Below, piece by piece: positions 28,970 to 63,441 of a DNA stretch of 64,000 nt. This DNA is from Bryobacterales bacterium (GTDB taxonomy: Bacteria > Acidobacteriota > Terriglobia > Bryobacterales > JACQDG01): positions 14,846 through 78,845 of the forward strand of contig DASREK010000015.1 of the NCBI GenBank assembly GCA_035652135.1. The letters run 5' to 3'. Within the stretch, counting starts at the first letter, position 1. Every line of letters starts with the position of its first letter. The notes under the pieces were generated by a model. The model had not been told where the DNA came from and did not search any database. It saw only the letters and a list, made by a program, of their open reading frames with translations. The position numbers were made by a program, and so were the translations under genes.

Positions 28970-29965
28970 ATGCGGTTTACGCTCAGTTCGATTGTAGCAG
29001 TTTTAGGGTTTGTCTCTCTGGGCGGCCTGGCGGCCTCGCAAGATGCCCGCTCTGGAGAGAATGCTCCGCCGGTCACGATTCCCGTGACCGTGGAGGACTC
29101 GAAAGGAGACCTAATCTCCGGCCTCGAAGCTGGGGATTTTCGCCTGTTTGAGAATGGAGTGGAGCAGAAGGTAACGGGCTTTTCGGCTGATGCTCAGCCG
29201 CTTTCTATCGCCGTGGTGATCGACGCGGCGCTCAGCGGCCCTACGTCCGAGAGGTTGCGGGCCACTTTCCCGAGCTTGCTAGCCGCGCTCAGCGAGTCTG
29301 ATGAAGCCGGCGTGTTTTCTTTTGATGTTGACTTTCGCACAGTCGCCGAGTTTACCTCGGATAAGGACAAGATCGAGAAGGCGCTCAAACAAATTCCTCT
29401 GGGAGCAGATTACGGTATAGCCGGCGAGCCGCTGGGTGCGCCGGCCCCGGTTATCAACGGGCAGCAGATCGGCGGGGCGCCCAGCCAGTACCCGGGCGCG
29501 GGGCAGCGCCCTCGAAAAGACATCGATAGCGCTTTGATTTCGGCGCTCGATGCTCTAACGCAAAGGCCCGCAGCCCGGCGCCGGATTGTTCTGCTTGTGA
29601 CGGACGGGGTGAATTCTCCCCACAATCCGATTTCCTCAAGCAAGGTGCTGGAAACCCTTCGGAAGACGGACGTCACGGTTTACGCCATCGGCCTTGACAG
29701 CGCCAAGCTGCCCCGCGGCTCGGGCCAACTGGCCCGGTTCTGCGAAGCCACCGGCGGAGAACTCTTCAAGGCCGTGAAGAAAACGTCGATCGAGAACCTC
29801 TATGCCCGGATCACTGAGCAGGCCCGCTATGCGTATTTGCTTTCTTATATGCCTGCCGGCGCAGCCGCCGGATTCCGCTCCATTCAGGTTTATGTCAGCA
29901 AACCGCACGCAAGAATTATTGCCAGAGAGGGCTATTTAGCCGGCCGGAGGCCGTCACAGCCGTGA
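28970..29965 (+). CDS. Secreted VWA-domain protein (acidobacterial VWFA-related type), divergent paralog
   Basis: The start is set to ATG 28970 (MRFTLSSIVAVLGFVSLGGLAA). It has the same architecture as the neighbour (VTVEDSKGDLISGLEAGDFRLFENGVEQ..., VLLVTDGVN, ...YLLSYMP...GYLA). Confidence 0.82.
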   Translation: MRFTLSSIVAVLGFVSLGGLAASQDARSGENAPPVTIPVTVEDSKGDLISGLEAGDFRLFENGVEQKVTGFSADAQPLSIAVVIDAALSGPTSERLRATFPSLLAALSESDEAGVFSFDVDFRTVAEFTSDKDKIEKALKQIPLGADYGIAGEPLGAPAPVINGQQIGGAPSQYPGAGQRPRKDIDSALISALDALTQRPAARRRIVLLVTDGVNSPHNPISSSKVLETLRKTDVTVYAIGLDSAKLPRGSGQLARFCEATGGELFKAVKKTSIENLYARITEQARYAYLLSYMPAGAAAGFRSIQVYVSKPHARIIAREGYLAGRRPSQP

Positions 29966-30561
29966 AAAGAGCTGTCGTCCATCTCAGGGCTGTCGATCCG
30001 GTGCTCCGCACAATCATCGACAAGGTGGGCCCCTGCCGCATTCAGTACCGCGAGCCGGAGTTTGAGACGCTGGCCCGGGCTGTTGTTTACCAGCAATTGC
30101 ACGGCGCGGCGGCTGCGGCCATCTTTGGCCGGGTTCTCGCAATGGCAGGGAACCGCGATGGGCGCCTTACGGCGCGGTCCCTTCTCCGGATCCCGAAAAA
30201 AGATTTGCGCGCTGCGGGGCTCTCGGCGCCGAAGATCACCTACCTTCGCGATCTGGCCGAGAAAACGGCTGCTAAGATTGTCCGATTTGACCGCTTCCCA
30301 AATATGGAGGATGCAGAGATAATCGCGTCTCTGACACAGGTGAAAGGCATCGGCGTTTGGACCGCTCATATGTTCCTTCTGTTTGCGCTCCGCCGCCCCG
30401 ACGTGCTGCCGGTAGGTGATTACGGAGTCAGAACCGCTGTACGGGATGCGTACAAGCTGAAGGATCTACCCACGCCGGCCGAATTGGAGGCAATCGCACG
30501 CCCCTGGCGCCCTTATTGCAGCTTCGCAAGCTGGTATCTGTGGCGCAGCCGGGAATTGTAG
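29962..30561 (+). CDS. DNA-3-methyladenine glycosylase II family (HhH-GPD, AlkA-like)
   Basis: FETLARAVVYQQL...VKGIGVWTAHMFLLFALRRPDVLPVGD. The GTG start overlaps the VWA gene stop (GTGA). Confidence 0.82.
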   Translation: MKRAVVHLRAVDPVLRTIIDKVGPCRIQYREPEFETLARAVVYQQLHGAAAAAIFGRVLAMAGNRDGRLTARSLLRIPKKDLRAAGLSAPKITYLRDLAEKTAAKIVRFDRFPNMEDAEIIASLTQVKGIGVWTAHMFLLFALRRPDVLPVGDYGVRTAVRDAYKLKDLPTPAELEAIARPWRPYCSFASWYLWRSREL

Positions 30562-30660: not shown

Positions 30661-31806
30661 TCAAAGGCTGGCATTTCCATCGAATAGAGAAGGCATCCAG
30701 GCGCGCCGGTCCGTCAGAGCGCGGGCCAGAGCGGCGTCTTTAGCCAAGTAGAAGAACGTCCACGTCGAAAGCTTCCGGCGATGGGGGGCGGCGGCATCCA
30801 TAAACTCCCCGCGCTCGAGCCACCGGCCGACGCTTTCAAGCATGTGGATGCCTTCCGCCCGGCACTTTCGCACCGCCCACGCTAGAAGGGGCTCGAGCAG
30901 CGCAGTAGATCCGTCAAGGGACACAAAGTCCACCAGTCTCACCCGCTTCAGGCCGATCTCCGGATTATCCTGGCGGTCGAAAATCGCGTACGCCGCTATT
31001 TTCGGACCATGCATCGCGGCAGCCACCCACAGCCGCTGATCGAGAACCGCGTGCATGAAATGCCATTCCAGCACCTCTTGCGTGCGCACGGCTAAAAGCA
31101 CCCGCGGATGGTTCGCCCGGAATTCCATCCAGAACTTCTCGAACCGCTGATCAAAACCTGGGAACGCCCGTATCTCTGTATCGCCCTCTTGCAACGGGCT
31201 CTGCGTGACCCAATCTTTGAGAAAAGATGCGGCGGAAGCGGGATAGCTCAGCAACCTAGTCATCCGATATTTCCTTTTACAAAGCACGCTCTCTATAAAG
31301 CCCCTCTGGTTGGTAATCCAAAACGCGGATTGATCCCACAATCCGGAGGGAACCTTCGGGCACGCGAAGACTTCAAATGCCGCAGCGGCCGGCAGCGTCA
31401 TTGTATTGTTGAGATATAAATCGATGCCCGGCTGATTGATCACCCGGTCTAACAGCAAAAGCGACGCGCTTCGATAGGCGGGATCAGCAACCTGCGAGCG
31501 GCCCGAAGCCGCCAGAATCCTGCGGCCCTCAAATTCATATAGCAGAGGAATATTGCCGACGGATCCGACGATCCGGCCGTTGTCTTCGATGACCCAACCG
31601 ATTTTCCAATGCGGCAGATACCGGCAAGCCGGATTGCCGGCCCAAAGGTGCGCCCACTGCCTGTAGGTTTTGGCCTCGAGGCCGTATCGGGACTCGAGCG
31701 CCGCAATTTGGGCGTAATCGTCGAAAGTGGCTTCGCGAAGCCTGGGCCCCGATCCTTGTCCGGCGCGGGCGTCGGCCGGCAGAGTGCTCTTTGGAATTTT
31801 GTGCAC
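30661..31806 (-). CDS. Double-domain GNAT-superfamily acyltransferase (FemAB-like architecture, tentative)
   Basis: 381 aa. The N-terminal GNAT region reads ATFDDYAQIAALE...GRIVGSVGNIPLLYEFEGRRILAASGRSQVADPAYRS, and there is a second acyltransferase-like half. It is the last gene of the six-gene operon. Confidence 0.6.
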   Translation of the reverse strand: MHKIPKSTLPADARAGQGSGPRLREATFDDYAQIAALESRYGLEAKTYRQWAHLWAGNPACRYLPHWKIGWVIEDNGRIVGSVGNIPLLYEFEGRRILAASGRSQVADPAYRSASLLLLDRVINQPGIDLYLNNTMTLPAAAAFEVFACPKVPSGLWDQSAFWITNQRGFIESVLCKRKYRMTRLLSYPASAASFLKDWVTQSPLQEGDTEIRAFPGFDQRFEKFWMEFRANHPRVLLAVRTQEVLEWHFMHAVLDQRLWVAAAMHGPKIAAYAIFDRQDNPEIGLKRVRLVDFVSLDGSTALLEPLLAWAVRKCRAEGIHMLESVGRWLERGEFMDAAAPHRRKLSTWTFFYLAKDAALARALTDRRAWMPSLFDGNASL

Positions 31807-31815
31807 CTGCCCTCC

Positions 31816-33096
31816 TTAGGCCGCTTTGACCAACCCCTGTTGAGCGCGAGGCGCGGCTTCGAACGCTATGGGCAAGCGTTCCAGCCCTCGGAAAACCATG
31901 TTGTGGCGCCAGGCCAGAGGAACGGGATCCAGCCGCAGATTGCGAAGACGCCGGAATACCGTTGAAAACGCGATCTGGCCCTCGACTCGCGCCAGCGGCG
32001 CCCCGAAGCAGTAGTGGCCGGCCCAGCCGAAAGCGAGGTGCCGGTTATCTGTACGAGTGATGTTCAAACGGTCGGGATCAGGAAACCGTTCCGGGTCGTG
32101 ATTGGCCGCCCCGATCACCGCGATGACCGCATCCCGCTTCCGAATCATTTTGCCGCCGAGCTCGGCGTCGGCTGGAGCAAGCCGAGCGGTGTGCTGGATG
32201 GGGCTTTCGTAACGCAACAATTCCTCGACGGCCGCGGGCAGCAGCGCCGGATCCGCCTGGAGCCGCGCCAGTTCCTTGGGATTTTGCAGCAGCGCGAGCA
32301 ATCCGTTGCCGATCAGGTTCGTCGTAGTCTCCTGCCCGCCGGTCATCGTAATGATGCAATTGGCGATGATCTCCTCTTCGCTGAGCCGGTCGCTTTCGAT
32401 TTCCGCCGACATGAGCGCGTGCACCACGCCTTCCCGGGGATGTCGGACTTGTTCGCGCATTCTCTCCCGGAAGTAGGCGGTCATTTTCTCCACGGTGGCC
32501 AGCATCAGAGCCGCCCGGCCCGGGTTGTGTTGAAAATTCCCGAGCATTTCGGAAAAATCCTTCGACCACGTCTTTAGCTGATCGCGATCGCTTACAGGAA
32601 CGCCCATCAGCTCGGCAGTCACCGTTGCGGGCAGCAGATCGGCGAAGTCGGCGATCACATCCATGCGCCCTTTTTCGATCACTCTGTCTATCAGTTCGTC
32701 CGTGATTTCCTGAATGTGAAGGCGTATCGCTTCGGCTCGGGCGGGAGTAAACGCAGCAGCGGCCAGAGCTCGTAATCGCGTGTGATTCGGCGGGTCCATG
32801 AAGATCATTTGCCGCACAAGCACCTCTGCGACCGGATTCAGCTCGGCAAGTCCGAGACTGGTGAGCTGCGCCGGCGTGGGCATGCGCTCAGCCGAAAATC
32901 GCTGGAGAACCGCCGTAACATCCTTGTACCGCGTCACCACCCAGGCATGCAGATAGGGATCCCAGTGCACGGGATCTTCGCGCCGAAGCCGGTGATATAG
33001 AGGATATGGGTTAGCCAAAACGCCGGGATCCAGCCGCTGATACAGGCTGAGCGCCGCATCCTGACCGTCCATGGCCGGGCTCGTGCTTCCGCTCAT
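31816..33096 (-). CDS. Cytochrome P450
   Basis: I-helix TMTGGQETT, ExxR (VEELLRYESP), and haem-thiolate loop FGWAGHYCFGAPLA. The start ATG 33096 overlaps the stop of the A-PCP gene (tcATGA). Confidence 0.92.
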   Translation of the reverse strand: MSGSTSPAMDGQDAALSLYQRLDPGVLANPYPLYHRLRREDPVHWDPYLHAWVVTRYKDVTAVLQRFSAERMPTPAQLTSLGLAELNPVAEVLVRQMIFMDPPNHTRLRALAAAAFTPARAEAIRLHIQEITDELIDRVIEKGRMDVIADFADLLPATVTAELMGVPVSDRDQLKTWSKDFSEMLGNFQHNPGRAALMLATVEKMTAYFRERMREQVRHPREGVVHALMSAEIESDRLSEEEIIANCIITMTGGQETTTNLIGNGLLALLQNPKELARLQADPALLPAAVEELLRYESPIQHTARLAPADAELGGKMIRKRDAVIAVIGAANHDPERFPDPDRLNITRTDNRHLAFGWAGHYCFGAPLARVEGQIAFSTVFRRLRNLRLDPVPLAWRHNMVFRGLERLPIAFEAAPRAQQGLVKAA

Positions 33097-34967
33097 GACT
33101 TTGCCTCCGCGCAGCACCCTGGCGTCCCGGTGGGAGCCCCTGCGGATCGGATTCGCTTCTCTTCTGCCAATCGGTCGAGTTCCGCAGACAGAGCTGCTAC
33201 CGTGGGCGCGTCGAACAGGCTGCGTAGTGAAATTTCGACTCCGAAAATCCCCCGCAATTGGGCGATCATCTGCGCTCCGAGTAAAGAATGCCCTCCCAGA
33301 AGAAAAAAATTATCATTTCTGCCGATGGCATCGAGCTTCAAAAGCTCGGCTAGAATCCCGGCTACACATACTTCTGTTGGCGTCCGGGGCAGGATGGATG
33401 CCTGGTCTTGAAGCGTATTGCCGGAGTCCGGCGGCGGCAGAGCGGAGTGATCGATTTTGCCGTGAGCCGTCAGCGGAAATGCAGCGAGCCGTACAAACAG
33501 CGCGGGCAGCATGTACTCGGGCAGTTGGCCGCGAAGGAAATCGCGCAGCTCGGTGTGTGTCACGCGGGAGGTTTCGTCCAGAATGACATACGCGATGAGC
33601 CGCTTTTCTCCGCCTTCATCCTCGCGAGCAACAACCAGGCTGTCCCGAACCTCCGGCCGCCGGTTGAGCGCGCTCACCACTTCCTTTGGCTCGATGCGGC
33701 AGCCGCGGATCTTAATCTGATCGTCCGCCCTTCCAAGAAACGCGAGCTGGCCGTCAGGCAGCAGGCTCGCAAGATCTCCCGTTTTGAACAGCCGGCTGCC
33801 AGGCTCGGGGTGGAAGGGATTCGGGACGAATTTTTCTTTGGTCAACTCCGGGCGGTTGCGATATCCGCGCGCCAGGCTCGGCCCTCCAATGCAAATTTCG
33901 CCGGGAAACCCTGCCGGGACGGGCAAGGCGCGCTCATCGAGGAGGTAGATTTCTGTGTTGTCGATGGCCCGCCCGATAGGGGGCAGCGTGTCTGGGTATT
34001 CGCCAGGACCGAGACGAGTGGAAGTCGCGACAACCGTGCACTCGGTCGGGCCATAGTTGTTGAAGACGGCAAAGGGGAGATTCGCCGGCGGATAGTGATG
34101 GAGCGTATCGCCTCCGGTGAGCAAAATGCGGAGGGAAACGCTGGCCGGCCAGTCCAGCATGAAAATCTGTTCCGCTATGGGTGTAGGGATAAAACTGATC
34201 GTCACTTTTTTGGCCAGCAGCCACTCTTGCAAAAGCTCCGCCGAGCTTCGCACAGCCTCATCGGCAAGATGGACGCTGGCGCCGCTGGCCAGATACGGCC
34301 AAAGCTCCCACACCGCGGCATCGAATCCGAGTCCCGCCAGATGGCTGGCTCGGTCCGCTGCGGTCACCGCAAAGGCCCGCCGGTGCCAAGTGACCAGATT
34401 GCTCAAGCCGGCGTGCGTGATTTCGACGCCTTTCGGCGTACCCGTGGAGCCGGACGTATAGATAACATAGGCCAGTTCGTGCGGCATTATTTCCGAGAAG
34501 AGCGGATCGGCCCGGCCATCGCCTGCCAGCAGCGAAGCCGCATCGACTACGGCTCCAGACCATGCAGCGAATCGCTGTATGAAATGCTGATTCGTCACCA
34601 GAACCGGCGCCTGCGCATCTTCCAGCATGAAGGCAAGACGCTCGGCGGGGTATCCGGGATCCATGGGAACGTAAGCGCCGCCAGCTCTCCAGATGCCCAG
34701 CGCAGCCACCGCCATATCCAGGCAACGCGGCAAACACAGACCGACAAGGTCGCCCGGTTCGACGCCCAAAGCCTGCAACTGCGCGGCAAAGGCGCCCGCT
34801 CGCCGATGCAGCTCAAGGTATGTCAAGACCTCGGCGCCCGACGCAACGGCGATCGCATCAGGGCGCTCGGCTGCCTGCCCGGCCACCATTTCCGGGACGA
34901 GCCTCGCTTCACGGGCCGCAGGCGCGGCAGCCGTGCACAGAGCCGATTTTTCCGGAGAAGTCGTCAT
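33093..34967 (-). CDS. Stand-alone NRPS-type adenylation-thiolation (A-PCP) didomain protein; no C, E or TE domain
   Basis: A-domain cores YVIYTSGSTGTPKGV, FDAAVWE, NNYGPTE, FKTGDL, GRADDQIKIRGCRIE and LTAHGKID, then carrier motif LGGHSLLG. 624 aa leaves no room for further domains. Confidence 0.92.
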   Translation of the reverse strand: MTTSPEKSALCTAAAPAAREARLVPEMVAGQAAERPDAIAVASGAEVLTYLELHRRAGAFAAQLQALGVEPGDLVGLCLPRCLDMAVAALGIWRAGGAYVPMDPGYPAERLAFMLEDAQAPVLVTNQHFIQRFAAWSGAVVDAASLLAGDGRADPLFSEIMPHELAYVIYTSGSTGTPKGVEITHAGLSNLVTWHRRAFAVTAADRASHLAGLGFDAAVWELWPYLASGASVHLADEAVRSSAELLQEWLLAKKVTISFIPTPIAEQIFMLDWPASVSLRILLTGGDTLHHYPPANLPFAVFNNYGPTECTVVATSTRLGPGEYPDTLPPIGRAIDNTEIYLLDERALPVPAGFPGEICIGGPSLARGYRNRPELTKEKFVPNPFHPEPGSRLFKTGDLASLLPDGQLAFLGRADDQIKIRGCRIEPKEVVSALNRRPEVRDSLVVAREDEGGEKRLIAYVILDETSRVTHTELRDFLRGQLPEYMLPALFVRLAAFPLTAHGKIDHSALPPPDSGNTLQDQASILPRTPTEVCVAGILAELLKLDAIGRNDNFFLLGGHSLLGAQMIAQLRGIFGVEISLRSLFDAPTVAALSAELDRLAEEKRIRSAGAPTGTPGCCAEAKS

Positions 34968-34971
34968 GTCT

Positions 34972-35829
34972 TCACCTCGTCAATTCACAAGAAGTGTGCG
35001 ATGCAGCCTCATCTGGAAACAGGCGAAGAGCGCCGTATCGACACTGGTCAGCTTCCCAGGTCCAGTATCGGAACGGACGCCGGGTCGTCCCGGCCGCGAG
35101 TGCGGCAGCGCAGCCTTTATGCGCGGATATGTCATGTACACAAATGTGATGTACACACCGGTCCGGTGCATAATCGGGCGACCCGGCACTCGTAAAGCTC
35201 AGAAGGCGCTCGGGCCCTGGGTACAGAAATTTCTCCAAAGTCCTGATCCCATTTTCGATTCCCCATCCACAGGCCTTCGTACAGGCCTCCATGCGGGTCC
35301 AGGCCTTAAAGAACGTTTGTAGTCTCCTGTGGGGAGCGAGAGCATCCAGCTCTCGAGCCGCCTCCGGCGAAAGGAAGCTGCGCGCCACAGTCCGGTCGAT
35401 TCCATCGCGAATCTGCTCCACGTCGATGCCCACGGGCCCTGCGCCGCTGATGGCGAATACGGCGACTTGTCCGGAATGCGAGACGCTAAAATGCAAACTT
35501 CCCCGGCCGAGCTCGGGCTTGCCGCGTTCGCCGTAGCGAAACATTACGCCGGGCGGCGGCACTCCCAGATACCGGCCGAGAATTTCTCTCAGCGCCGCCC
35601 GGGCAATGATGTACCGCCTGCGGTGGCGCAGCAGCGGGAATAGCGCGGCTTTCCGCCGTTCCTCGACATCGAGCATTCGCGCCAGGGCGCCCAGAGAGCC
35701 GCCGTGTTGGTCCAGATTTGCCCGCCACACATGAATTTCGCCAACGTTCAGCTTGAGGGGGCCCCGAGGCGCCGCCCAGATCACACCGCCTCGCTGCCGC
35801 CTCGACAATCGCGGAGAATCTAAGACCAT
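34972..35829 (-). CDS. Sfp-type 4'-phosphopantetheinyl transferase
   Basis: GKPEL, FSVSHSG, GIDVEQI and FFKAWTRMEACTKACG. The stop is 4 nt before the A-PCP start. Confidence 0.88.
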   Translation of the reverse strand: MVLDSPRLSRRQRGGVIWAAPRGPLKLNVGEIHVWRANLDQHGGSLGALARMLDVEERRKAALFPLLRHRRRYIIARAALREILGRYLGVPPPGVMFRYGERGKPELGRGSLHFSVSHSGQVAVFAISGAGPVGIDVEQIRDGIDRTVARSFLSPEAARELDALAPHRRLQTFFKAWTRMEACTKACGWGIENGIRTLEKFLYPGPERLLSFTSAGSPDYAPDRCVHHICVHDISAHKGCAAALAAGTTRRPFRYWTWEADQCRYGALRLFPDEAASHTSCELTR

Positions 35830-37112
35830 ACATTCTCCTCGGAATACTCCGGAGCGGGGGCGGGGCTAGGTTCATAGTCAAACGGCGGCGCGGGACACCG
35901 GCGGGCCTGCGCCCAACGCCATAGCTCCCGCAGATCGGCCCACAACATCAGCAGCACGGGCGCCGGGTCATCGGCGGCGCAAAACGCCGCCTCGCGGATT
36001 CCAGAGAGCGATTTCACCCACTGCCGCAGCGTCAGCTTGCCATCCAGCGCATAACGAAGACTAGCGGCCAAATCGAGGTCTTCCACGATCCACTTGCGCC
36101 CCTCGGCCGCTGCTTGTGGAGGAACGGGACGTCCGGTTAGGTGCAGATACAAGGCTCGGGCTACATCCAAGTCGTCGCGCGACACAAATAAGCGGAACGT
36201 GCTGCCGATTCGCGGGTTGACATCCAGCAATTTAAATTCGCCGGCGCGAGCGTCATAGCTGAAATCAATGTCGACAATGCCCCGAAAACCGAGGGATTGG
36301 ACCAACCGCTTCGCAATCCTGGCGATAGTCTCGTTTTTTTGAGTCAAACCCAGGCTCGTAACGCCGGTGTAAGCCGGACATTGACGTAGTTTTCGGCCGG
36401 TGAATCCTGCAAGGCAGTGGGAATGCTCGTCGAAATATCCATTGAACATCCAGTCTTCGCCATCGGAAATATATTCCTGCACGACCACGTTTTTGACCGC
36501 GCCCTCCTCCATGCGGGCGCAAAGATCCAGCAGTTGCTTTGCGCTTCGAATGACGAATTTTGTTTTGCTATTCTGCCTCCTTAGCAATACGCCGGAGCCC
36601 TTGATCATCACCGGACGGCCGCAGGATTCGAAATAATGAAGCAGATCGGCTTTTGTCCTAGGGTATTCGGTTCGGGGGATGGAGATATTGAGGCGTTGGG
36701 CGACGTGATACACTTCCCTTTTGTCACAAAGAGAGTGGATCAGTGCGGGGCTGACCTCTGGAAAGAGATACGACTGCCTGAGTATTTCCGCGTTCTCGGC
36801 CACAAATACAGTTGCGGTGTCGGTTGTGGGAATCAAAATATAGGGCCGGCCGGCCCGCTTCGGTATTCGCATCAAAAATTCGACCGATTTAGCCGGCGCG
36901 GTGCTATCAATATCCCAGATAAACTTGCCACGGCTGTATCGGGAGAAAAACGCAGGGGTCGCACGCGCAGCGTCGACGTTGAAGACAGGAATTCCCAGAC
37001 GGCCGAAGCTACGTGTGATCCCGAGGCCGCCATGGTGGGGCGAGGCCAGAATCAACACAGGCGTTGAAGGATCGGTGATGATCATCGGCATTTGCCCAGG
37101 CAGGTGATTCAC
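35820..37112 (-). CDS. ATP-grasp family carboxylate-amine ligase (predicted)
   Basis: PVLILASPHHGGLGITRSFGRLGIPV...VMIKGSG...VVVQEYISDGEDWMFNGYFD...LLDVNPRIGSTF fits the ATP-grasp layout. The stop overlaps the PPTase start by 10 nt. Confidence 0.7.
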   Translation of the reverse strand: MNHLPGQMPMIITDPSTPVLILASPHHGGLGITRSFGRLGIPVFNVDAARATPAFFSRYSRGKFIWDIDSTAPAKSVEFLMRIPKRAGRPYILIPTTDTATVFVAENAEILRQSYLFPEVSPALIHSLCDKREVYHVAQRLNISIPRTEYPRTKADLLHYFESCGRPVMIKGSGVLLRRQNSKTKFVIRSAKQLLDLCARMEEGAVKNVVVQEYISDGEDWMFNGYFDEHSHCLAGFTGRKLRQCPAYTGVTSLGLTQKNETIARIAKRLVQSLGFRGIVDIDFSYDARAGEFKLLDVNPRIGSTFRLFVSRDDLDVARALYLHLTGRPVPPQAAAEGRKWIVEDLDLAASLRYALDGKLTLRQWVKSLSGIREAAFCAADDPAPVLLMLWADLRELWRWAQARRCPAPPFDYEPSPAPAPEYSEENVWS

Positions 37113-37164: not shown

Positions 37165-38418
37165 TCACAGGTGAATGGGGCCGTCGCCATCCCCGCGGTT
37201 CAGATGCATGTTGGAAAGCGCTGGATCTAAATCGCTCAGCAACCCGGAAAGCTGCTTGGACATGAGCAGAAAGAAATTGGACGGCCCCACAAAAAACCCG
37301 GCCTTTTTCAGGCCGTCGCACCAAGCCGGATGGCTCTGGTTCGAAACCAACAAATCGACCCCGCGATGCTCCAGATTGTTCGCCGCGGCGGCTACTACCT
37401 GCGGCGCATCTTCGGGCAACGCCAGACAATCCACAATAGAGCCCACGCGCATATTGCCGAAATATTTGTTGCAGGACATGACCGTATCCAGCAAGACCGC
37501 CCATCCGATGGCGCGTGAAGCGGCGCAAATTTTCAAGCGGATGAACCTGGGATCGCTGGCCGGATAAAGGATGTTCAAGACCTCGGAATCTCGAACCGCA
37601 GTCATCGAATAGCGGCTGCGGCACATCCTCCAGATTTCGTCTGTCCAGGATGCGAACTCAGAAACCTCTTCCGCTAAGGGCAAGCCCTGGCGGGCGGTCT
37701 TGGCTTTGAGGAGCAACCGCACTGTCCGCGCTCCCAGCCAGCCCATACCCGAATAGGCGGCTGCATCCAGTGCGAGCCGTCTGGGCAATCCGGTTTTCAG
37801 GTATTCAATGTTCCGCAAGAACCGGAAGCCGTTCAGCACCTTGAAGAAGAAAGGAACAACTCTCCAAGTCCAGCCCATGGCGCGAAGCATACGGCTGATG
37901 TTGGCGTCGAGGCTTCCGATCCCGAGACAGTACAACAGAGGCATTCTCCGCAGCGCGTCATGGATGATTTTCGGACCCACCAACCCATACCGTTTGTCGG
38001 CAATTGCCTCAGAAATGGGCATCCGGCAGGCGGCGGCCGGCAAAAGACGGCCCGCGAAAGAGAACTCCTGGCGCTTGAGCGTGTAGGCTCCTCGCACAAA
38101 GCCATCCTGCACAACAACAAAAATTTCCTCGTAGATCTGTCTGTCACCCACTTTCGGCAACCAGTCAGGAGCTGGCCTGACGGGCAGCAAAAATGGCGCG
38201 CCGGCGCGGCGGATTCGCTCGTTGAATTCCGTGACCGCCCCTACGAGATCCTCGGTATAGGGCAGGACTCGCAGAGCCTCGCTGTTGACCTGGCTCGAAG
38301 ACCGATTGCCAGCAGCCGGTCCGCCATTTTCCAATGCCAATCCTCTTCCGTGTTTTTCCAACGGTAAATGGCCCATTACCACAGAGGTCCACGCGTCAGC
38401 CGAATGTGATGGCTCCAT
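37165..38418 (-). CDS. Double-domain GNAT-superfamily acyltransferase-like protein (FemAB-like architecture, tentative); first gene of the operon
   Basis: About 418 aa from ATG 38418 (MEPSHSA...). Its size and layout match the protein at 30661..31806 (an N-terminal acyltransferase-like half, and a second half with AIGWAVLLD...GSIVDCLALPEDAPQVV). The ORF-track extension to 38643 is Arg/Gly-rich nonsense and would swallow the promoter. Confidence 0.5.
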   Translation of the reverse strand: MEPSHSADAWTSVVMGHLPLEKHGRGLALENGGPAAGNRSSSQVNSEALRVLPYTEDLVGAVTEFNERIRRAGAPFLLPVRPAPDWLPKVGDRQIYEEIFVVVQDGFVRGAYTLKRQEFSFAGRLLPAAACRMPISEAIADKRYGLVGPKIIHDALRRMPLLYCLGIGSLDANISRMLRAMGWTWRVVPFFFKVLNGFRFLRNIEYLKTGLPRRLALDAAAYSGMGWLGARTVRLLLKAKTARQGLPLAEEVSEFASWTDEIWRMCRSRYSMTAVRDSEVLNILYPASDPRFIRLKICAASRAIGWAVLLDTVMSCNKYFGNMRVGSIVDCLALPEDAPQVVAAAANNLEHRGVDLLVSNQSHPAWCDGLKKAGFFVGPSNFFLLMSKQLSGLLSDLDPALSNMHLNRGDGDGPIHL

Positions 38419-38481
38419 CCCGTCCCCTTTTGCCGCGCGCCGGGCTCGGCCTGATCCGCCCCGCGTGCGCCGCACTCCGCC

Positions 38482-38497
38482 TGCAACGAAAGTACCA
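38482..38497 (-). promoter_or_regulatory. Sigma-54 (-24/-12) promoter candidate for the A-PCP operon
   Basis: The minus strand reads TGGTAC-TTTCG-TTGCA. GG and GC have the exact consensus spacing of TGGCAC-N5-TTGCW, with one mismatch in the -24 hexamer. The predicted TSS is near 38471, about 53 nt upstream of ATG 38418. Confidence 0.55.
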
Positions 38498-39019
38498 AAT
38501 CGCCGATAGTTACTAACAGTATTGGAAACCGGTCGCCGCAGAGAGCATTGCATCGCCGGCGCCCCCGGAAACCTTCTTGCCGGGAGCAGAAAGCTTCCAC
38601 ACTGAAGAGAATCTCCACTCCGCAGAGAGCGCCGCGCTTTCATATTTATGAACGGCCCGAATCCGGCGATTAAGGTGAAAGCCGGAGAGCGCTAAGGCGC
38701 TTTCCCAATAGGAAGTAGTACGCATAGCGGTTACAGTAACCCGTTGGGCAACGCAAGAGATTCTTGCCGTTGACTGGCCACGCATTGGTCTCCCGCACCG
38801 CCGCTCCTCTTCCTCTGCTCACGAGCTAAGGCGGCAAAGTTAGTTCGGCTCGTGCTCCTTTTACTGTGCGGCTCCAGCGTGGAGGGTGTGCCTTTTTTTG
38901 AAGGCTATGCGCCACAGGAACGTGTCTACGCTCCCGGATGATCCGACGACGCCCCAAGTTCCTCTCCCCCCAGATCAACGCCGGAATCAGCCCGACAAAT
39001 CCACTTTGTGAGGTAAAGA

Positions 39020-41818
39020 GTGAAGCCTTCAGTTTCACGAGTGACCGGTTTAGCAATAGCTGTCCCCTCTTTGTTGTTTTGTTGGCTGCTACTGCCCGGA
39101 CTGGCCGGCGCGCAGCCGGTAGTGTGGGTGGCTTCCGACATGGTTCGGGTGGGCGCATCGGATGCGCCGGGTTCCGGAACGCAAGCGCAGCTTTGGGCCG
39201 GGCGCGGCGAGTACGAAGCCTTTCAAATCATCATCCGGGCCCCGAGCGGAGGATTGAGTAACGTCAATGTCACCGTTTCTGACCTGAGCGGTCCCGGTGG
39301 TCAAACGATTCCTCGCAGCAGTTACACGCTCTATCGCGAGAAGTATGTGTACGTCAGCCCGGGCAGCCCTAACTGGGGCGGCTCGAACCAGCCGCTCGGA
39401 GCGGGCTGGTACCCAGACGCTCTGATCCCTTTCACCGACCCGGCAACCGGAGCGCCGCTGAGCGGGGCCTCGCTGCAAGCCGTTCCGTTCAATCTGGCAG
39501 GCAATACAAACCAGCCAATCTGGGTTGATCTCCTGGTGCCGCGCACCGCCCCGGCGGGCCAGTATAACGGCACGTTCACCGTCACCAGCTCGCAGGGCAG
39601 CGTGAGCGGCTCGGTAGTCCTGAACGTATGGAACTTCACATTGCCGCTGACCCCGTCCCTGCACTCCAGCTTTCTGTATTGGACGGCGGGCAGCCTGGCA
39701 GCGCAAGAAGAATTGCTCCGGCACAAGATCTCGCCTTTGGCCACCAGCCCGTCCAACCAGAGCCTGCTGATGAACAGCTACGGGCTGGGCAGCACGGGGC
39801 TGCCGTTCTGGAGCGGCGCGGACGTGAGCACGTGCAGTATGTCGCCGGCTCCGTCGGTGAGCCAATTCCAGGCTTCGGCCTCCGCGCAGCAGCCCGGATT
39901 GCTGCTCTACGATTACAGCGCCGACGAGATCGGCAATTGCTCGAACTTGATCACTACAATCAAGCAGTGGGCTTACAACATGCATCAGGCCGGAGTGAAA
40001 AACCTCATTACGATGTCTCCCAACCCGCAGCTTTACGACGACGGGTCGGGCACGGGCCGCTCGGCAGTGGACATCTGGACCATGCTGCCCATCATGTATG
40101 ACCAAAATGTCAGCGCGGTCAACTATGTGCTCCAGAAAGGCGACGCGGCCTGGTCGTACAACGCTCTGGTTCAGGACTCGTATTCGCCGAAATGGCTCAT
40201 AGATTTTGCGCCGATGAACTTCCGCATCCAGCCGGGCTTCATCAGCCAAGCCTTGGGACTCACCGGCATGCTCTATTGGCGCATCGACGACTGGTCGTCG
40301 GATCCCTGGAACCAGGTGAATAACACCGGCACGTTCAGCTCGAACAACTACCCTGGGGAGGGAATGCTGGTGTACCCGGGCCAGCAGGTCGGCATCAACG
40401 GCGTGGTCGCTTCCATGCGCCTCAAGTATCTCCGCGAAGGCGTCGAAGATTACGAGTACGTGCAGATGCTGAAGAACCTGGGTCAGGGAACCTGGGCTAT
40501 GAACCTGGTGAAGACCATCGCCTCGAGCTGGTCGAATTGGACCAGAGACCCGAACGCCCTGGCCTCGGTTCGCATGCAACTGGGGCAGCAGCTCCACTCT
40601 CTTTCCGGAGGCTCTCCAACCAGTTCGGGCGGCGGCTCCAGCGGAGGAACTACGGGCGGCACAGCGCCCGCGGCGCCGGCCAGCCCTTCGCCTGCTAACG
40701 GTGCGACAGGCGTCAGCACCAGCCCGACTCTTACGTGGTCTCCCAGTTCGGGGGCCGCTTCCTATGACGTATACTTCGGAACAGCCTCGAATCCTCCGTT
40801 GGCCGCCACTGTCGCGACGGCGAGCTATGCGCCGGGAACTCTCAGCAGCGGGACTACATATTTCTGGAAGGTGGTAGCCAAAAACTCCGTCGGCACGGCT
40901 GCCTCCTCGGTCTGGTCGTTTACGACCTCGGCCCCTGTGGTCAGCAGTTCGACGCCGGTCGCAGTTTCGGTAACTCCTTCCTCCGGCTCGGGAATGAGCG
41001 CGGTCTTTAGTCTGGTGTATTCTGACGCCAGCGGGGCCGCGGACATAGCCGGCGCTGGCGCTTTGATCAATGCCACGTTCAATGGGCAGGCCGCTTGCTG
41101 GTTTTACTACGATCGCGCCAGCAACCAGATCTCGCTCGCCAGCGACGATACGACTACTTGGACGGCAATGACACTCGGCTCGGGGAATTCACTGTCCAAC
41201 AGCCAATGCAGCATCAGCGGCAGCGGATCCAGCGCCGTCGCATCCGGAAGTAACCTGACGCTCAATGTGGCGGTGACCTTCCAGTCCGCTTTCGCCGGCT
41301 CGAAAACGACGTATCTATATGTCCAGAACAAGGCGGGTCAGTCGAACGGCTACCAGGCAAAGGGAACATGGACAGTTTCGTCCGCCCCCGTGCCTCCCGT
41401 AGCCGTCTCCGTTTCTCCCTCGTCGGGATCCGGATTTAGCAGCGTCTTTCAATTTATCTATTCCGACGGCAACGGCGCTTCCGATATCGCCGGCGCGGGG
41501 GCCTTGATCAACGGTAGCTTCAACGGGCAAGGCGCTTGCTGGTTTTACTACAACCGCGCCAGCAATCAGATCTCTCTCGCAAGCGACAGCACGGCAAGCT
41601 GGAGCGCCATCACCGTGGGATCCGGTGGAGTATTGAAAAACAGCCAGTGTACGATCGCCGGTGTTTCCGTCAGTGCAGCCGCGAGCAATTTGACCGTTAC
41701 TGTTCCCATCACGTTTCAAGCGAATTTTGCGGGATCCAAGGCGGTCTACATGTACGTGCAAGATAAAGAGGGCCAATCCAACAATTATCAAAACAAGGGG
41801 AACTGGATAGTCCCATAG
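39020..41818 (+). CDS. Secreted DUF4091 (GH123-like) glycosidase-like protein with a Gly/Ser linker, an Fn3-like domain and two copies of an uncharacterised ~147-aa domain
   Basis: Signal peptide ...LLLPGLAGAQP. The DUF4091-type body reads YEAFQIIIRAP...YREKYVYV...GWYPDALIPF...YDYSADEIGNC...YWRIDDWS...YPGEGMLVYPG...LREGVEDYEY. It is followed by SGGGSSGGTTGG and then PANGATGVSTSPTLTWSP...YDVYFGT...YFWKVVAKN. Confidence 0.8.
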   Translation: MKPSVSRVTGLAIAVPSLLFCWLLLPGLAGAQPVVWVASDMVRVGASDAPGSGTQAQLWAGRGEYEAFQIIIRAPSGGLSNVNVTVSDLSGPGGQTIPRSSYTLYREKYVYVSPGSPNWGGSNQPLGAGWYPDALIPFTDPATGAPLSGASLQAVPFNLAGNTNQPIWVDLLVPRTAPAGQYNGTFTVTSSQGSVSGSVVLNVWNFTLPLTPSLHSSFLYWTAGSLAAQEELLRHKISPLATSPSNQSLLMNSYGLGSTGLPFWSGADVSTCSMSPAPSVSQFQASASAQQPGLLLYDYSADEIGNCSNLITTIKQWAYNMHQAGVKNLITMSPNPQLYDDGSGTGRSAVDIWTMLPIMYDQNVSAVNYVLQKGDAAWSYNALVQDSYSPKWLIDFAPMNFRIQPGFISQALGLTGMLYWRIDDWSSDPWNQVNNTGTFSSNNYPGEGMLVYPGQQVGINGVVASMRLKYLREGVEDYEYVQMLKNLGQGTWAMNLVKTIASSWSNWTRDPNALASVRMQLGQQLHSLSGGSPTSSGGGSSGGTTGGTAPAAPASPSPANGATGVSTSPTLTWSPSSGAASYDVYFGTASNPPLAATVATASYAPGTLSSGTTYFWKVVAKNSVGTAASSVWSFTTSAPVVSSSTPVAVSVTPSSGSGMSAVFSLVYSDASGAADIAGAGALINATFNGQAACWFYYDRASNQISLASDDTTTWTAMTLGSGNSLSNSQCSISGSGSSAVASGSNLTLNVAVTFQSAFAGSKTTYLYVQNKAGQSNGYQAKGTWTVSSAPVPPVAVSVSPSSGSGFSSVFQFIYSDGNGASDIAGAGALINGSFNGQGACWFYYNRASNQISLASDSTASWSAITVGSGGVLKNSQCTIAGVSVSAAASNLTVTVPITFQANFAGSKAVYMYVQDKEGQSNNYQNKGNWIVP
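40952..41815 (+). repeat. Tandem duplication of a ~147-codon domain inside the DUF4091 gene (period 441 nt)
   Basis: Copy 1 is 40952-41392 and copy 2 is 41393-41815. The shared strings are PVAVSV.PSSGSG.S.VF...YSD..GA.DIAGAGALIN..FNGQ.ACWFYY.RASNQISLASD...W.A.T.GSG..L.NSQC.I...NLT..V..TFQ..FAGSK..Y.YVQ.K.GQSN.YQ.KG.W.V. By eye the copies are about 60% identical. Confidence 0.85.
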
Positions 41819-43648: not shown

Positions 43649-44803
43649 TCAGCTCAGATTTTGCAGCCGCGGTTCATCTTCCAGATGCAGATTCACCGGA
43701 CCCGGCGCGCCTGTTTTGCCGGTGAGAGCGGCTCCTTCAGGGCCGCTCGATGGATTCATACAGAGCTCGCTGAGAGCCGGTGAAGGGGCAAGCGTTTCCG
43801 TATACAGAGCAGGGGCTGATATGCCGTTCCCCTTCTCCTGCGCCATGCGAGCCGCGAGTTCCGCCATGGTGAGGGTTTCAATGTCACCCGACTCCCGCGC
43901 CTTTAATATCCGCTCGAGAATGCCTTCAAAGACGGAAAACCCCTTCGGCGATTCGGCCAGATTCACCGGATGCAGACAGAAATGAAACACTCCATTATGG
44001 CGGATAGCGGCATCCAGCCCCCGCGCTACGCGCTCAATTCGGCTGCGGAGAACAACCAGACGGCTGCGCGACTCGCCGATTGGATAAAGAAACAGCGATG
44101 CCGGGATATTCCACAGGCCCGGCAGCGTCTCTTTGGGCCATACGGGTGGAGGCGTCGCCCGGCCTAATTCCTCCAGTATCCGCAGCAAGGAGCCGGGAAG
44201 CGTTCTGCCCAGCTTTTCGGAAAGCACGGGCGGGCGACCGCGGTAACAAAGAATGCCGTTAGACGCCAGAAGACCGTGGCAAGCTTCCTGATTCCGCGGG
44301 AAAGAGAACGAGACGGGCCGCACCCGGACTGCCTCCAAAGCCTCGATGCCACCGAAAAATTCCCGGCGGATTACTTCCGGCTTCGACCGCCAATCGGTCC
44401 AAATCAAATGCGTCAAGCCGCCGTGCAACCCGACGTCCTGTTTGGGGCGAGCCTCTGCCAAACGCTTGACAAAGGAACGCCGATACCAGAGCGCGGCGAT
44501 TCCTTCATCCCCCGGCGGAATGGAGCGAGTCCAGCGGGCGGGCAGGCCTAAGAGCCTGGGATCTCGCGGGCCGTCGCTTTCGGCAAGCGCCATACCGCCC
44601 ACCACCAGCCACGTCGCGCTCACGCCAGCCGAGCAAAGGACGCCCAAAAGGCGATCGTAAGCGGCCAGAGCGCTCGGATACCGTTCGCAGAACTGCTGCT
44701 CATTCAGAAGATCGAGATGTCCCCATATCTGCTCTGCATCGAGCGAAATGATCGCGACAGCGCGTTTCAGGCTTCTGTGAAAATTCTCATCGGGAGCTGG
44801 CAC
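43649..44803 (-). CDS. Polysaccharide deacetylase-family (CE4-like) protein
   Basis: AIISLDAEQIWGHLD...ATWLVVGGMAL...GLHGGLTH...FSFPRNQ has the layout of the divergent EPS-locus deacetylase subfamily. The NodB motifs are not canonical. Confidence 0.6.
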   Translation of the reverse strand: MPAPDENFHRSLKRAVAIISLDAEQIWGHLDLLNEQQFCERYPSALAAYDRLLGVLCSAGVSATWLVVGGMALAESDGPRDPRLLGLPARWTRSIPPGDEGIAALWYRRSFVKRLAEARPKQDVGLHGGLTHLIWTDWRSKPEVIRREFFGGIEALEAVRVRPVSFSFPRNQEACHGLLASNGILCYRGRPPVLSEKLGRTLPGSLLRILEELGRATPPPVWPKETLPGLWNIPASLFLYPIGESRSRLVVLRSRIERVARGLDAAIRHNGVFHFCLHPVNLAESPKGFSVFEGILERILKARESGDIETLTMAELAARMAQEKGNGISAPALYTETLAPSPALSELCMNPSSGPEGAALTGKTGAPGPVNLHLEDEPRLQNLS

Positions 44804-57083: not shown

Positions 57084-57145
57084 AGCTACCGCAATCTCAG
57101 TTATCAGGAACTGAGTCCACGCTGCTCCCTGACGTTCAAGTCCAA

Positions 57146-57161
57146 TGCAACGCCAATGCCA
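57146..57161 (-). promoter_or_regulatory. Sigma-54 (-24/-12) promoter candidate for the polysaccharide operon
   Basis: The minus strand reads TGGCAT-TGGCG-TTGCA. GG and GC have the exact consensus spacing, and TGGCA and TTGCA are intact. The predicted TSS is near 57135, which is 52 nt upstream of ATG 57083 and 91 nt upstream of ATG 57044. Confidence 0.62.
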
Positions 57162-57400
57162 GTCGGCCTCACCGCGTGGGTTGCCCAGGCAAATCAAGCG
57201 CTCTCCGTATCGTTACAGAGTCCGGAGAGGCGCGATGACAGCTTTCGTGGCTCCCGGCAAAGTGGAAGGCCGGGTGACAACTGTGGCATCGCGGTTCTCT
57301 ACGGCGGCCAAGTGGAGGGCTGCGCTGTATAGTCGTACAATTTTGCATCTTTCGTTTCGATGCGTTTCTGGCAATTCCAGCGAAGAATCTCAATCACTTT

Positions 57401-58499: not shown

Positions 58500-59882
58500 A
58501 TGAACAGACGCCGAGTTCTCGTAGTAGATGACGACAAGAGCATCCTTGCCTATCTCTCCGATCTTTTGGCCGATCGCTACGACGTAGACTGCCTGGATTC
58601 GGGCGAAGGCGTCGTGCCCTATTTGGGCTCCGGCGCCCGCCCGTCTTTGATCCTGCTGGATTTGATGATGCCGGCGGTCAGCGGTCTGGATGTGCTGGCC
58701 GCAATCGAACGCCTGAGCCGCCGGCCGCCCGTGATTGTTCTGTCGGCGATCGGCCAAATCAACACCGTAGTGAGAGCGATGAAGCTTGGCGCATCGGATT
58801 ATCTGGTCAAGCCGGTGGAAGAACAGGACCTCTATCAGGCGATCGAAAACGCATTAGAAGAGTCCGATGACCCAGAAGAAACGGCGGCGCCGGCCGCTGC
58901 CTGCGGGGCCGACATCATTTCTGCCAACCGCCAGGTGCTCCGTGTCAAGCAAATCGCCGCGCAGGTAGCGGACGCAGAGGTTCCTGTTCTCTTGCTCGGA
59001 GAGTCCGGGGTGGGCAAAGACGTATTTGCCCGCTATATCCATGCCCGATCGAGCCGCAGCGCCGCGCCGTTCGTCAAGGTCAATTGTGCGGCGCTCCCGG
59101 CGGACTTGCTGGAATCGGAGCTGTTCGGGTATGATCGCGGGGCCTTTACAGGAGCTCTTCGGGAAAAGCCGGGGAAGTTTGAACTTGCTGGCCGGGGAAC
59201 GCTTTTTCTGGACGAAATCGGTGAAATGAGCCCCGTGCTCCAGGCTAAACTCCTGCACGTTCTTCAGGACGGAGAATACAGCCGCCTCGGAAGCACACGG
59301 AGCACGCTTTCTCAAGCACGCATTATCGCTTCGACCAACAAGCGCATCGAAGAGGCGGTATCGAAGGGCGAGTTCCGCGAGGATTTGTACTTCCGTCTGA
59401 ATGTAATTCGTCTGCAAATTCCTCCCCTTCGCGAGAGGCGCGAGGATATTCTGCCGTTGTCGCATTTCTTCTTGGAAAAATACCGCCCTCAATACCCGCG
59501 GTCGCCTCGGCAGTTGCCTCGCGAGCTGATCCAGGCCATTCTGCTGCATTCCTGGCCCGGCAATGTGCGGCAGCTTGAAAACACGATTAAACGTTTCCTC
59601 GTGCTGCCTGACCTCGATTTTGCGCTGGCCGAACTGCGGGAATCTGGCACTCCGTTTAATGTCAGCTCGCCGCCGCAAAATCGTTCCCTGAAGCGTGTAT
59701 CCGCTCTGGCGGCAGAAAGAGCAGAAAAAGAGGTGGTCCTTCGCACGCTCGATGAGACGAACTGGAACAGAAAGCAGGCAGCCCGCGAGCTCAATATTTG
59801 CTATAAAGCCCTGCTGAACAAACTTCGAAAATGGGATATACCGGGACGGTCCAAAGGCCCCATCGAGCCTTCCGCGCTCTAA
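58500..59882 (+). CDS. Sigma-54-dependent response regulator (REC plus AAA+ enhancer-binding domain plus Fis-type HTH; NtrC family)
   Basis: The receiver has VLVVDDD...LILLDLMMP...VLSA...YLVKP. The AAA+ domain has GESGVGKDV, ESELFGYDRGAFTGA (GAFTGA) and RVIASTN-like (RIIASTN). The C-terminal HTH reads NRKQAARELNICYKALLNKLRKW. Confidence 0.92.
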   Translation: MNRRRVLVVDDDKSILAYLSDLLADRYDVDCLDSGEGVVPYLGSGARPSLILLDLMMPAVSGLDVLAAIERLSRRPPVIVLSAIGQINTVVRAMKLGASDYLVKPVEEQDLYQAIENALEESDDPEETAAPAAACGADIISANRQVLRVKQIAAQVADAEVPVLLLGESGVGKDVFARYIHARSSRSAAPFVKVNCAALPADLLESELFGYDRGAFTGALREKPGKFELAGRGTLFLDEIGEMSPVLQAKLLHVLQDGEYSRLGSTRSTLSQARIIASTNKRIEEAVSKGEFREDLYFRLNVIRLQIPPLRERREDILPLSHFFLEKYRPQYPRSPRQLPRELIQAILLHSWPGNVRQLENTIKRFLVLPDLDFALAELRESGTPFNVSSPPQNRSLKRVSALAAERAEKEVVLRTLDETNWNRKQAARELNICYKALLNKLRKWDIPGRSKGPIEPSAL

Positions 59883-60642: not shown

Positions 60643-60651
60643 GGCAATGCG

Positions 60652-63161: not shown

Positions 63162-63171
63162 GCTGTCCCTC

Positions 63172-63441
63172 CTACGCCGCCGGTTGGAGCTTGGTTTGAA
63201 TGAATCTGCTGAGGTTGTTGATCGAATCCAGATTGTCCGGCACCAGATCTTCATCTTCAATTTTGATCTGATATTGCCGCTCCAACAAACTCACCAGTTC
63301 CAGAACGCTCGTGGAGTCGATAATGCCTTTTTCCAAAAAAGAGTCGTCGTCCGAAAATTTGCCGTCGTCTTGGCCGAAAAGAAGATTTTCCACCACCAAA
63401 GAGCGCAATTCCTGATTGAGTGTTTGATTAAGTGTTTCCAT
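63172..63441 (-). CDS. Acyl carrier protein (stand-alone)
   Basis: 89 aa from ATG 63441 (METLNQTLNQELRSLVVENLLF...). It has the phosphopantetheine site LEKGIIDSTSVLELV and an acidic helix II. Confidence 0.85.
   Translation of the reverse strand: METLNQTLNQELRSLVVENLLFGQDDGKFSDDDSFLEKGIIDSTSVLELVSLLERQYQIKIEDEDLVPDNLDSINNLSRFIQTKLQPAA

Follow-up and report, generated by a model that had tools for sequence, protein, structure and literature searches.

The element at positions 38482 to 38497 (minus strand) of a 64,000-nt stretch of DNA from a Bryobacterales bacterium (contig DASREK010000015.1 of assembly GCA_035652135.1, forward-strand positions 14,846-78,845; hereafter the window) is very likely a sigma-54 promoter, with predicted dependence on that factor, placed ahead of a six-gene operon that includes an adenylation-carrier protein. 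The case for the promoter is made by its location and by comparison with relatives, not by its match score. Canonical sigma-54 (RpoN) promoters, such as glnAp2, nifH, and pspA, carry the -24/-12 consensus TGGCAC-N5-TTGCW, and by standard geometry transcription starts 12 nt downstream of the -12 C. On the minus strand, 38497 to 38482 reads TGGTACTTTCGTTGCA, which matches the consensus pattern at 15 of 16 positions: the GG-N10-GC spacing is canonical, TTGCA is complete, and the -24 hexamer holds a single mismatch to TGGCAC, with T instead of C at -23. The element is oriented toward the operon and lies 63 nt from the ATG at 38418. The sequence, spacing, intact TTGCA, and single mismatch all read back as the initial annotation had given them, and its arithmetic for a start near 38471 with a 53-nt leader to ATG 38418 is correct, as is that for a 52-nt leader to ATG 57083 at a second promoter of this type in the window. 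The features concerned are the following.

38482..38497, minus strand: -24/-12 element TGGTACTTTCGTTGCA, with GG at 38496-38495 and GC at 38484-38483; 14.6 bits, second in the window.
38471, minus strand: predicted transcription start, taking C 38483 as the -12 base and the start 12 nt downstream.
38419..38470, minus strand: predicted 5' leader of 53 nt, counting the start base; AAGGGGA at 38429-38423 resembles a Shine-Dalgarno sequence.
57146..57161, minus strand: comparison promoter TGGCATTGGCGTTGCA ahead of the polysaccharide operon, 15.0 bits.

Whether the element lies between genes depends on the start codon of the first gene. The mechanically called open reading frame (ORF) extends up to an ATG at 38643, which would place the motif within the gene. 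The database protein P0001 (417 aa, 100% identical) begins at ATG 38418, P0002 (87% identical) begins at the same MxPSHSADAW, and the AAGGGGA run lies 5 nt ahead of this ATG. In the relative's locus L089, which encodes an 87% identical protein and has the same operon and the same divergent GH123 gene, the counterpart of 38419-38643 carries 1- and 2-nt indels that break the in-frame extension, and the ORF starts at the position equivalent to ATG 38418. On these four grounds ATG 38418 is the real start and, because the divergent neighbour, a GH123-like gene, starts at GTG 39020, the motif lies in a 601-nt intergenic region. The next-best score within this region is 5.4 bits, a simple sigma-70 scan of 38300..39100 found no sigma-70-like promoter, and the 38482 element is the only recognisable promoter there. 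The leader is 72% identical to that of L089, which retains the AAGG..ACGGGATG context. A structured RNA or riboswitch in the intergenic region was considered and rejected, with no Rfam match at the gathering threshold or at E <= 1 and fold z-scores of -0.95 and -0.41.

Two scans of the window bear on chance. A pattern search for TGGCACN5TTGCA with at most one mismatch returned three matches against 1.18 expected, a count reached by 12 of 100 shuffles. A position weight matrix (PWM) scan, which the initial annotation had proposed as a check, ranked the 57146 site first (15.0 bits) and the 38482 site second (14.6 bits) among 128,000 positions (64-kb window, both strands), with the next match at 12.4 bits. 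Strand-specific positions upstream of a transcription unit make up 4.3% of the total, and therefore about 0.04 chance matches are expected in promoter-eligible positions. The 38482 and 57146 sites are the only intergenic matches above 8.5 bits in the window. The placement of the 38482 element exceeds chance.

Comparison with orthologous and related loci revealed elements at the same place. The site is identical in L081 (99% identical), and L089 carries TGGCACTTGCGATGCG at the aligned position, with GG, GC, and their spacing retained and a -24 hexamer that is perfect consensus. All four first genes with an N-terminal extension (those of the window, L089, L107, and L108) have GG-N10-GC directly upstream. 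In L107 the site is TGGCACAAGTCTTGCA (18.2 bits), 27 nt ahead of a TTG start and in called intergenic DNA, and in L108 it is TGGCATCAGCCTTGCA (15.7 bits), 29 nt ahead of the start; the intergenic DNA of both loci is unalignable with that of the window, and these are therefore independent retentions. Relatives at 55-62% identity also carry a site ahead of the operon holding the gene of fam417, our working label for the family of the 417-aa first-gene product. Site scores are 13.1 bits in L084, 14.2 in L020, 12.7 in L004, and 9.6 in L010; the site is followed in L020 and L004 by a sugar transferase, an acyl carrier protein (ACP)-like gene, and the fam417 gene, and in L010 it directly precedes the fam417 gene. 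The L086/L087 site scores 14.7 bits and lies 86 nt ahead of the first gene. As a control, the other transcription units of these relative loci had matches of at least 12 bits upstream at a rate of 11/307. The assignment of the element as a sigma-54-type promoter, made in the initial annotation, is thus borne out by its intergenic position, its orientation, its being the sole recognisable promoter there, and the same-place elements in orthologous and related loci.

Several points weigh against this assignment. The PWM is approximate, modelled on published compilations without an acidobacterial fit; a window is expected to contain 0.6-0.85 matches of 14.6 bits or more, 23% of simulated windows contain at least two, and the match score on its own is not beyond chance. 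The L089 site scores only 8.8 bits, owing to A at -15 and G at -11, and its 16-mer identity (12/16) is no better than that of the flanks (72-73%) and lower than that of the 57146 element in its own relative (16/16). L002 and L003, at comparable identity, have no convincing site, several relative contigs end ahead of the operon start, and the ORFs scanned in the 64-kb window do not include rpoN. L089 retains the informative bases without excess conservation. A chance match, with the operon driven by an unrecognised sigma-70-family or extracytoplasmic function (ECF) promoter elsewhere in the 601-nt region, would accommodate both the expected number of 14.6-bit matches and the unexceptional conservation in L089, and a simple sigma-70 scan may miss acidobacterial promoters. 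We nevertheless consider it improbable, given the chance expectation of about 0.04 in promoter-eligible positions, the independent strong elements at this place in both L107 and L108, those preceding related operons in L084, L020, L004, and L086, and the retention in L089 of all four invariant bases and the spacing, with the -24 mismatch restored to consensus. A site that binds the sigma-54 holoenzyme non-productively or repressively, and is not the operon promoter, has a precedent, as passages of PMC7910581 citing genome-wide studies describe numerous places where sigma-54 binds but no promoter function is obvious. Against such a role, which we consider very improbable, the 38482 site lies between genes in the correct orientation, the leader downstream of it carries a ribosome-binding site, 38300..39100 yielded no alternative promoter, and the orthologous sites 27-29 nt ahead of start codons leave room for promoter function only.

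The sigma-54 promoter is therefore the reading that we favour on location and comparison, and it would operate as follows. Sigma-54 RNA polymerase would bind 38497..38482 as a closed complex, which an NtrC-type enhancer-binding ATPase bound upstream, with GTGGAA at about -129 as its candidate half-site, would remodel to the open form. The candidate activator is the product of 58500..59882, the only one in the window, its identity and its site both being predictions. Transcription would then proceed from about 38471 through the 53-nt leader and the six-gene operon, from 38418 to 30661.

Promoter-like sequences in further loci were set aside. CGGCAYTCRAATTGCA lies 23 nt ahead of the start in L008, L011, L012, and L014, scoring 12.0-12.6 bits in L008, L012, and L014 and 10.4 in L011; it was not counted as independent support, given a leader of only about 10 nt and four loci that are mutually close relatives. 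A conserved TGGAAN6TGGCT, found 28-156 nt upstream of the fam417 gene in 14 loci (0.06 expected), was considered as a cross-phylum -24/-12 variant and rejected, as it is the coding 3' end of a conserved gene that precedes fam417. The conserved C-terminus of that gene, ..LExRWLxEKxFVGT*, mimics GG-N10-GC in the DNA of Planctomycetota, Zixibacteria, and other loci, and such coding ends are a trap for promoter scans.

Loci with the LExRWLxEKxFVGT mimic: L005, L013, L015, L017, L021, L025, L029, L036, L040, L046, L060, L065, L072, and L078.

Two further motifs were judged in the same manner. (C/T)GGCAAG-N4-TTTGC, at about -900 to -1020 and at constant distance in five distant loci, reads G-K-x-F-A and very probably belongs to a coding sequence. 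In six loci TGGGGCGAYCTCTGCA stands at about -440 to -480, and it was likewise judged a coding artefact.

Two side observations concern the DNA around the operon. Identity to L089 falls at about 38650 from 92% (38650-39019, the distal intergenic half) to 72-73%; the adjacent GH123 gene is 95% identical at the amino acid level, and the operon is lower throughout (79-87%). A small hairpin at 38625-38641, with no Rfam match and no fold signal, is located at this step, which may mark a boundary of recombination and not a functional element. The third match of the pattern search, TGGCGCCCTTATTGCA (12.3 bits; 30505..30520, plus strand), lies within the 3'-terminal part of the HhH-GPD gene 29962..30561 and faces the convergent end of the acyl-transfer operon; chance is the probable explanation, an antisense promoter the alternative.

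The initial annotation had further proposed that the 38482 operon and the polysaccharide operon form one regulon, for which the second promoter, the activator, and the candidate upstream sites have to be considered.

58500..59882, plus strand: NtrC-family sigma-54 activator with a receiver domain, an AAA+ domain with GAFTGA at residues 214-219, and a Fis-type helix-turn-helix; Sigma54_activat match.
38595..38600, minus strand: candidate half-site for the activator, GTGGAA, at about -129; L089 keeps it at -127.
57262..57317, minus strand: direct repeat GCC[C/T]TCCACTT[G/T]GCCG, whose two copies stand 50 nt apart (about -132 and about -182) and contain TTCCAC and CTCCAC; L101 keeps the proximal copy.

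The polysaccharide operon has the order UpxY-Wza-Wzc-Wzy-Wzx-glycosyltransferase, and its first gene encodes a UpxY/NusG-like antiterminator. Its promoter has a predicted start at 57135 and a 52-nt leader to ATG 57083. The 16 bases of the site are identical in the 84% relative represented by L101-L104, although the flanks and the DNA just upstream have diverged. Syntenic polysaccharide operons carry sigma-54-like sites of 14.5 (L105), 11.5 (L106), 12.6 (L110), 8.8 (L111), and 11.1 bits (L112), and those of L105, L106, L111, and L112 precede a conserved GCGGTAGCT-ATG. Judged from these comparisons, the 57146 promoter is better supported than the 38482 promoter. The GCGGTAGCT-ATG context itself (9 nt before the UpxY-like start; 57084-57095 in the window) is near-invariant in L101, L105, L106, L111, and L112, relatives that share just 55-84% protein identity; GCGGTAGCT is unlike a Shine-Dalgarno sequence and may have a conserved role in translation or regulation.

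The activator 58500..59882 is the sole enhancer-binding protein among the window ORFs scanned, and the presence of an intact GAFTGA activator in the locus leads us to infer that the organism uses sigma-54. Its place beside the UpxY operon is retained in L101-L103. No named activator family has a curated cutoff that it reaches; against TIGR02915 (PrsR; cutoff 502.6) it scores 312.2 bits. Orthologues at 60-70% identity retain a small upstream gene and are not adjacent to polysaccharide genes, for which reason an attempt to footprint the activator site through them failed. Upstream of the activator lies a 296-aa ORF (57641-58531, plus strand) with no family match, at whose position only a 121-aa gene is called in L101; distant orthologues have 209-233 aa, with a weak HisKA match and no ATPase domain, and the ORF may encode a truncated or atypical partner kinase.

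The regulon proposal rested chiefly on the shared class and geometry of the two promoters, and the geometry argument did not survive. Leaders of the orthologues L107 and L108 are about 16 nt long, and for UpxY-type promoters, those preceding homologues of the first gene of the polysaccharide operon, the distance to the conserved start is 52 to 76 nt. Leader length varies, and therefore the agreement of 53 with 52 nt is uninformative on a regulon; it is a coincidence. Nor does membership in one sigma factor class suffice, as a common class does not imply a common activator. What remains in favour of one regulon is a hexamer shared at about -130 and the linkage of fam417 to polysaccharide genes.

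Much of the upstream sequence would suit another arrangement, in which the 38482 promoter is truly of the sigma-54 class but answers to another enhancer-binding protein and the two operons share a sigma factor without sharing a regulon. When the two upstream regions were compared directly, six matches reached 12/14 or better, a number not above shuffles (null mean 1.7, maximum 7). The conspicuous repeats differ, being GCAGAGGAAGAGGAGC / GCACAGTAAAAGGAGC at about -330 and about -380 upstream of 38497 and two copies of GCCYTCCACTTKGCCG upstream of 57161, and the fam417 promoter in L004, L010, and L020 is flanked by TTTATCACGTGAAA repeats instead. The separation of the activator's 60-70% orthologues from polysaccharide genes points the same way. 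Set against this arrangement are GTGGAA/TTCCAC at -129 (kept in L089) and -132 (kept in L101), its recurrence across promoter groups and in held-out loci, and the physical linkage of fam417 to polysaccharide genes in relatives; a separate activator is a serious contender to which we would give rather less than an even chance.

Other candidates for shared upstream sites were discarded: the long pair ACTTTGCCGCCTTAG and ACTTGGCCGCCGTAG (13/15) is not above shuffles, L089 does not keep the 8-mer CCCTCCAC present upstream of 38497, and the window shows no enrichment of the TTATCACGTGAAA repeats that adjoin the -24 element in L004, L010, and L020. In these three Terriglobia/Bryobacteraceae loci we also observed divergent sigma-54-like promoter pairs about 150 bp apart (L004 4709-5017, L020 4703-4952, and L010 5591-5997). 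The second promoter of each pair scores 15-16 bits and faces a homologue of window gene 43649..44803, and two to three copies of TTTATCACGTGAAA abut the -24 element of the fam417-side promoter.

For promoters of this class, the upstream site of an enhancer-binding protein is expected at a distance of about 80-200 nt. The hexamer emerged from a k-mer count over the span -40 to -230 in eight independent promoter-upstream groups. GTGGAA/TTCCAC was the top-ranked 6-mer, present in 6 of 8 groups (a count reached by shuffles in 3% of trials), and the 7-mer AGTGGAA was present in 5 of 8 (1% of trials). It occurs at -129 of the 38482 promoter, with a weaker GTGGAG at 38613-38618 (about -147), and at -132 and -182 of the 57146 promoter, the -132 copy being kept in L101. 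Elsewhere it stands at -131 in L086, at -162 and -174 in L105/L106, and as an inverted pair at -144 and -111 in L107. The prediction was set down before it was tested on three new loci, two of which contained GTGGAA, at -154 and -151 (P = 0.012 at a background of 0.063 per window). The hexamer is the only element common to both window promoters, where its orientation is opposite. The GTGGAA signal appears real but modest, and the predicted site is best treated as a lead.

Gene linkage was assessed independently of these motifs. In relatives, fam417 lies beside polysaccharide genes, namely Bac_transf (L004 and L020), Wzy (L083), and GH123 (L002 and L003), and beside homologues of gene 43649..44803 in L003, L004, L010, and L020. 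Two pairs of fam417 and UpxY homologues agree in the length of the longest contig listed for them (149,468 and 57,192 nt), and the two members of each pair may therefore lie on one contig. Co-regulation of the 38482 operon with the polysaccharide operon is plausible, and a single activator shared by both operons comes close to an even chance in our judgement. A fuller picture, of an acidobacterial sigma-54 regulon in which one NtrC-type activator at GTGGAA sites (about -130 to -175) switches on exopolysaccharide synthesis together with a hitherto undescribed pathway of carrier-protein-dependent glycan tailoring around fam417, moving acyl or aminoacyl groups from an S-carrier protein to the glycan, is a speculative one that we regard as unlikely, though worth stating.

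The operon that the 38482 promoter would govern consists of six minus-strand genes, separated in order by gaps of 52, -10, 4, -25, and 9 nt.

37165..38418, minus strand: first gene, 417 aa, of the uncharacterised family fam417; tandem-GNAT fold with a disordered 46-aa N-terminal extension (AlphaFold, Foldseek).
35820..37112, minus strand: ATP-grasp enzyme, 52 nt downstream of the first gene.
34972..35829, minus strand: Sfp/HetI-type 4'-phosphopantetheinyl transferase, with a 10-nt overlap with the preceding gene.
33093..34967, minus strand: stand-alone adenylation domain and carrier protein (A-PCP), with AMP-binding, AMP-binding_C, and PP-binding matches and TIGR01733 above its cutoff.
31816..33117, minus strand: cytochrome P450, by domain match.
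30661..31806, minus strand: last gene, 381 aa, no family match; a homologue lies near fam417 in L002.

No Pfam or NCBIfam model matched fam417, and a sequence search against the PDB found nothing, so that only the fold search was informative. The AlphaFold model has a mean confidence (pLDDT) of 84.8, with residues 1-46 disordered, and Foldseek against the PDB matched it to N-myristoyltransferase and the Eis-like chain 2hv2 (E about 1e-9, TM-score about 0.44). As modelled, the resemblance to tandem-GNAT enzymes is at the level of fold only. The family comprises more than 500 homologues (loci L001-L097), typically of about 370 aa and with an invariant C-terminal NRGDGDGPIHL, spread over Acidobacteriota, Planctomycetota, Zixibacteria, Ignavibacteria, and others. 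ATP-grasp homologues follow the fam417 gene in L001, L082, L086, and L089. The operon looks like a set for carrier-protein-dependent acyl or aminoacyl transfer, a reading based on the AMP-ligase, ACP-like (about 95 aa, with a DSL/DST motif), and ATP-grasp genes that adjoin fam417 in relatives. Its job is most likely the carrier-protein-dependent acylation or aminoacylation of the neighbouring operon's exopolysaccharide, which is the presumed substrate.

The surroundings of the two operons contain further related genes. Between them sit two paralogous GH123-like genes, 39020-41818 (plus strand) and 41788-43503 (minus strand), which are convergent with a 31-nt overlap; GH123 homologues also lie beside fam417 in L002 and L003. 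At the right end, the cluster 60040-63976 (minus strand) encodes an asparagine synthase, a 540-aa AMP-ligase, an NAD-synthase-like protein, and a GNAT protein. It resembles the asparagine synthase/ACP/AMP-ligase operon at 68-3843 of L107, which is divergent from the fam417 gene, and from this likeness the interval 30.6-64 kb looks like one polysaccharide-related super-locus around the activator.

If confirmed, the 38482 element would be among the first sigma-54 promoters with sequence support in Bryobacterales-type Acidobacteria, soil bacteria that are abundant and poorly studied; our literature search found no experimentally mapped sigma-54 promoters for Bryobacterales-like acidobacteria. It would tie an acyltransferase/ATP-grasp/carrier-protein operon to enhancer-dependent control alongside exopolysaccharide synthesis, and rpoN, the activator 58500..59882, and GTGGAA would offer a handle on when the matrix gets built and modified. 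Knowledge of sigma-54 itself is unchanged, because its control of envelope and natural-product genes is already documented; control of this kind is known, and here it is met in an under-studied phylum. A 2025 cross-phylum regulon survey gives the consensus TGGCAC-N5-7-TTGCT, with a main text that does not include Acidobacteria (PMC12316311).

Like canonical sigma-54 promoters, the 38482 site has the invariant GG and GC, exact spacing, a 15/16 match, an intergenic position, and a GAFTGA activator nearby; it differs in the T instead of C at -23 and in coming from an uncultured Bryobacterales-like acidobacterium, and its start and rpoN dependence are predictions. Sigma-54 control of exopolysaccharide and cell-envelope genes is established (Francke et al. 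2011, PMC3162934), and the 38482 promoter fits this theme in lying within a 33-kb polysaccharide-related super-locus that has a second, well-conserved sigma-54 promoter before the polysaccharide operon. It departs from the theme in that its operon is not one for sugar assembly, the link to polysaccharide being drawn from gene neighbourhood alone. The PrsK-PrsR system of PEP-CTERM/exosortase loci (Haft et al. 2006, PMC1569441) is similar in that an NtrC-family response regulator adjoins exopolysaccharide genes, with AMP-ligase and asparagine-synthase genes nearby (60652..63976 in the window). The window activator is nonetheless not PrsR (312 bits against the TIGR02915 cutoff of 502.6), and the window ORFs scanned yielded neither an exosortase nor a PEP-CTERM protein.

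A further parallel is offered by the non-ribosomal peptide synthetase and polyketide synthase (NRPS/PKS) clusters of Myxococcus xanthus, in which sigma-54 promoters have short activator half-sites (Ma, Welch and Garza 2021, PMC7910581). In both cases a sigma-54 promoter precedes an adenylation-carrier protein and tailoring enzymes, with short repeated half-sites upstream, which are candidates here. The 38482 promoter is intergenic, whereas 89% of those M. xanthus promoters are intragenic (PMC7910581). Unlike the M. xanthus clusters, the 38482 operon has neither a condensation domain nor a multimodular synthetase, and its product is therefore more likely an acylated glycan than a peptide.

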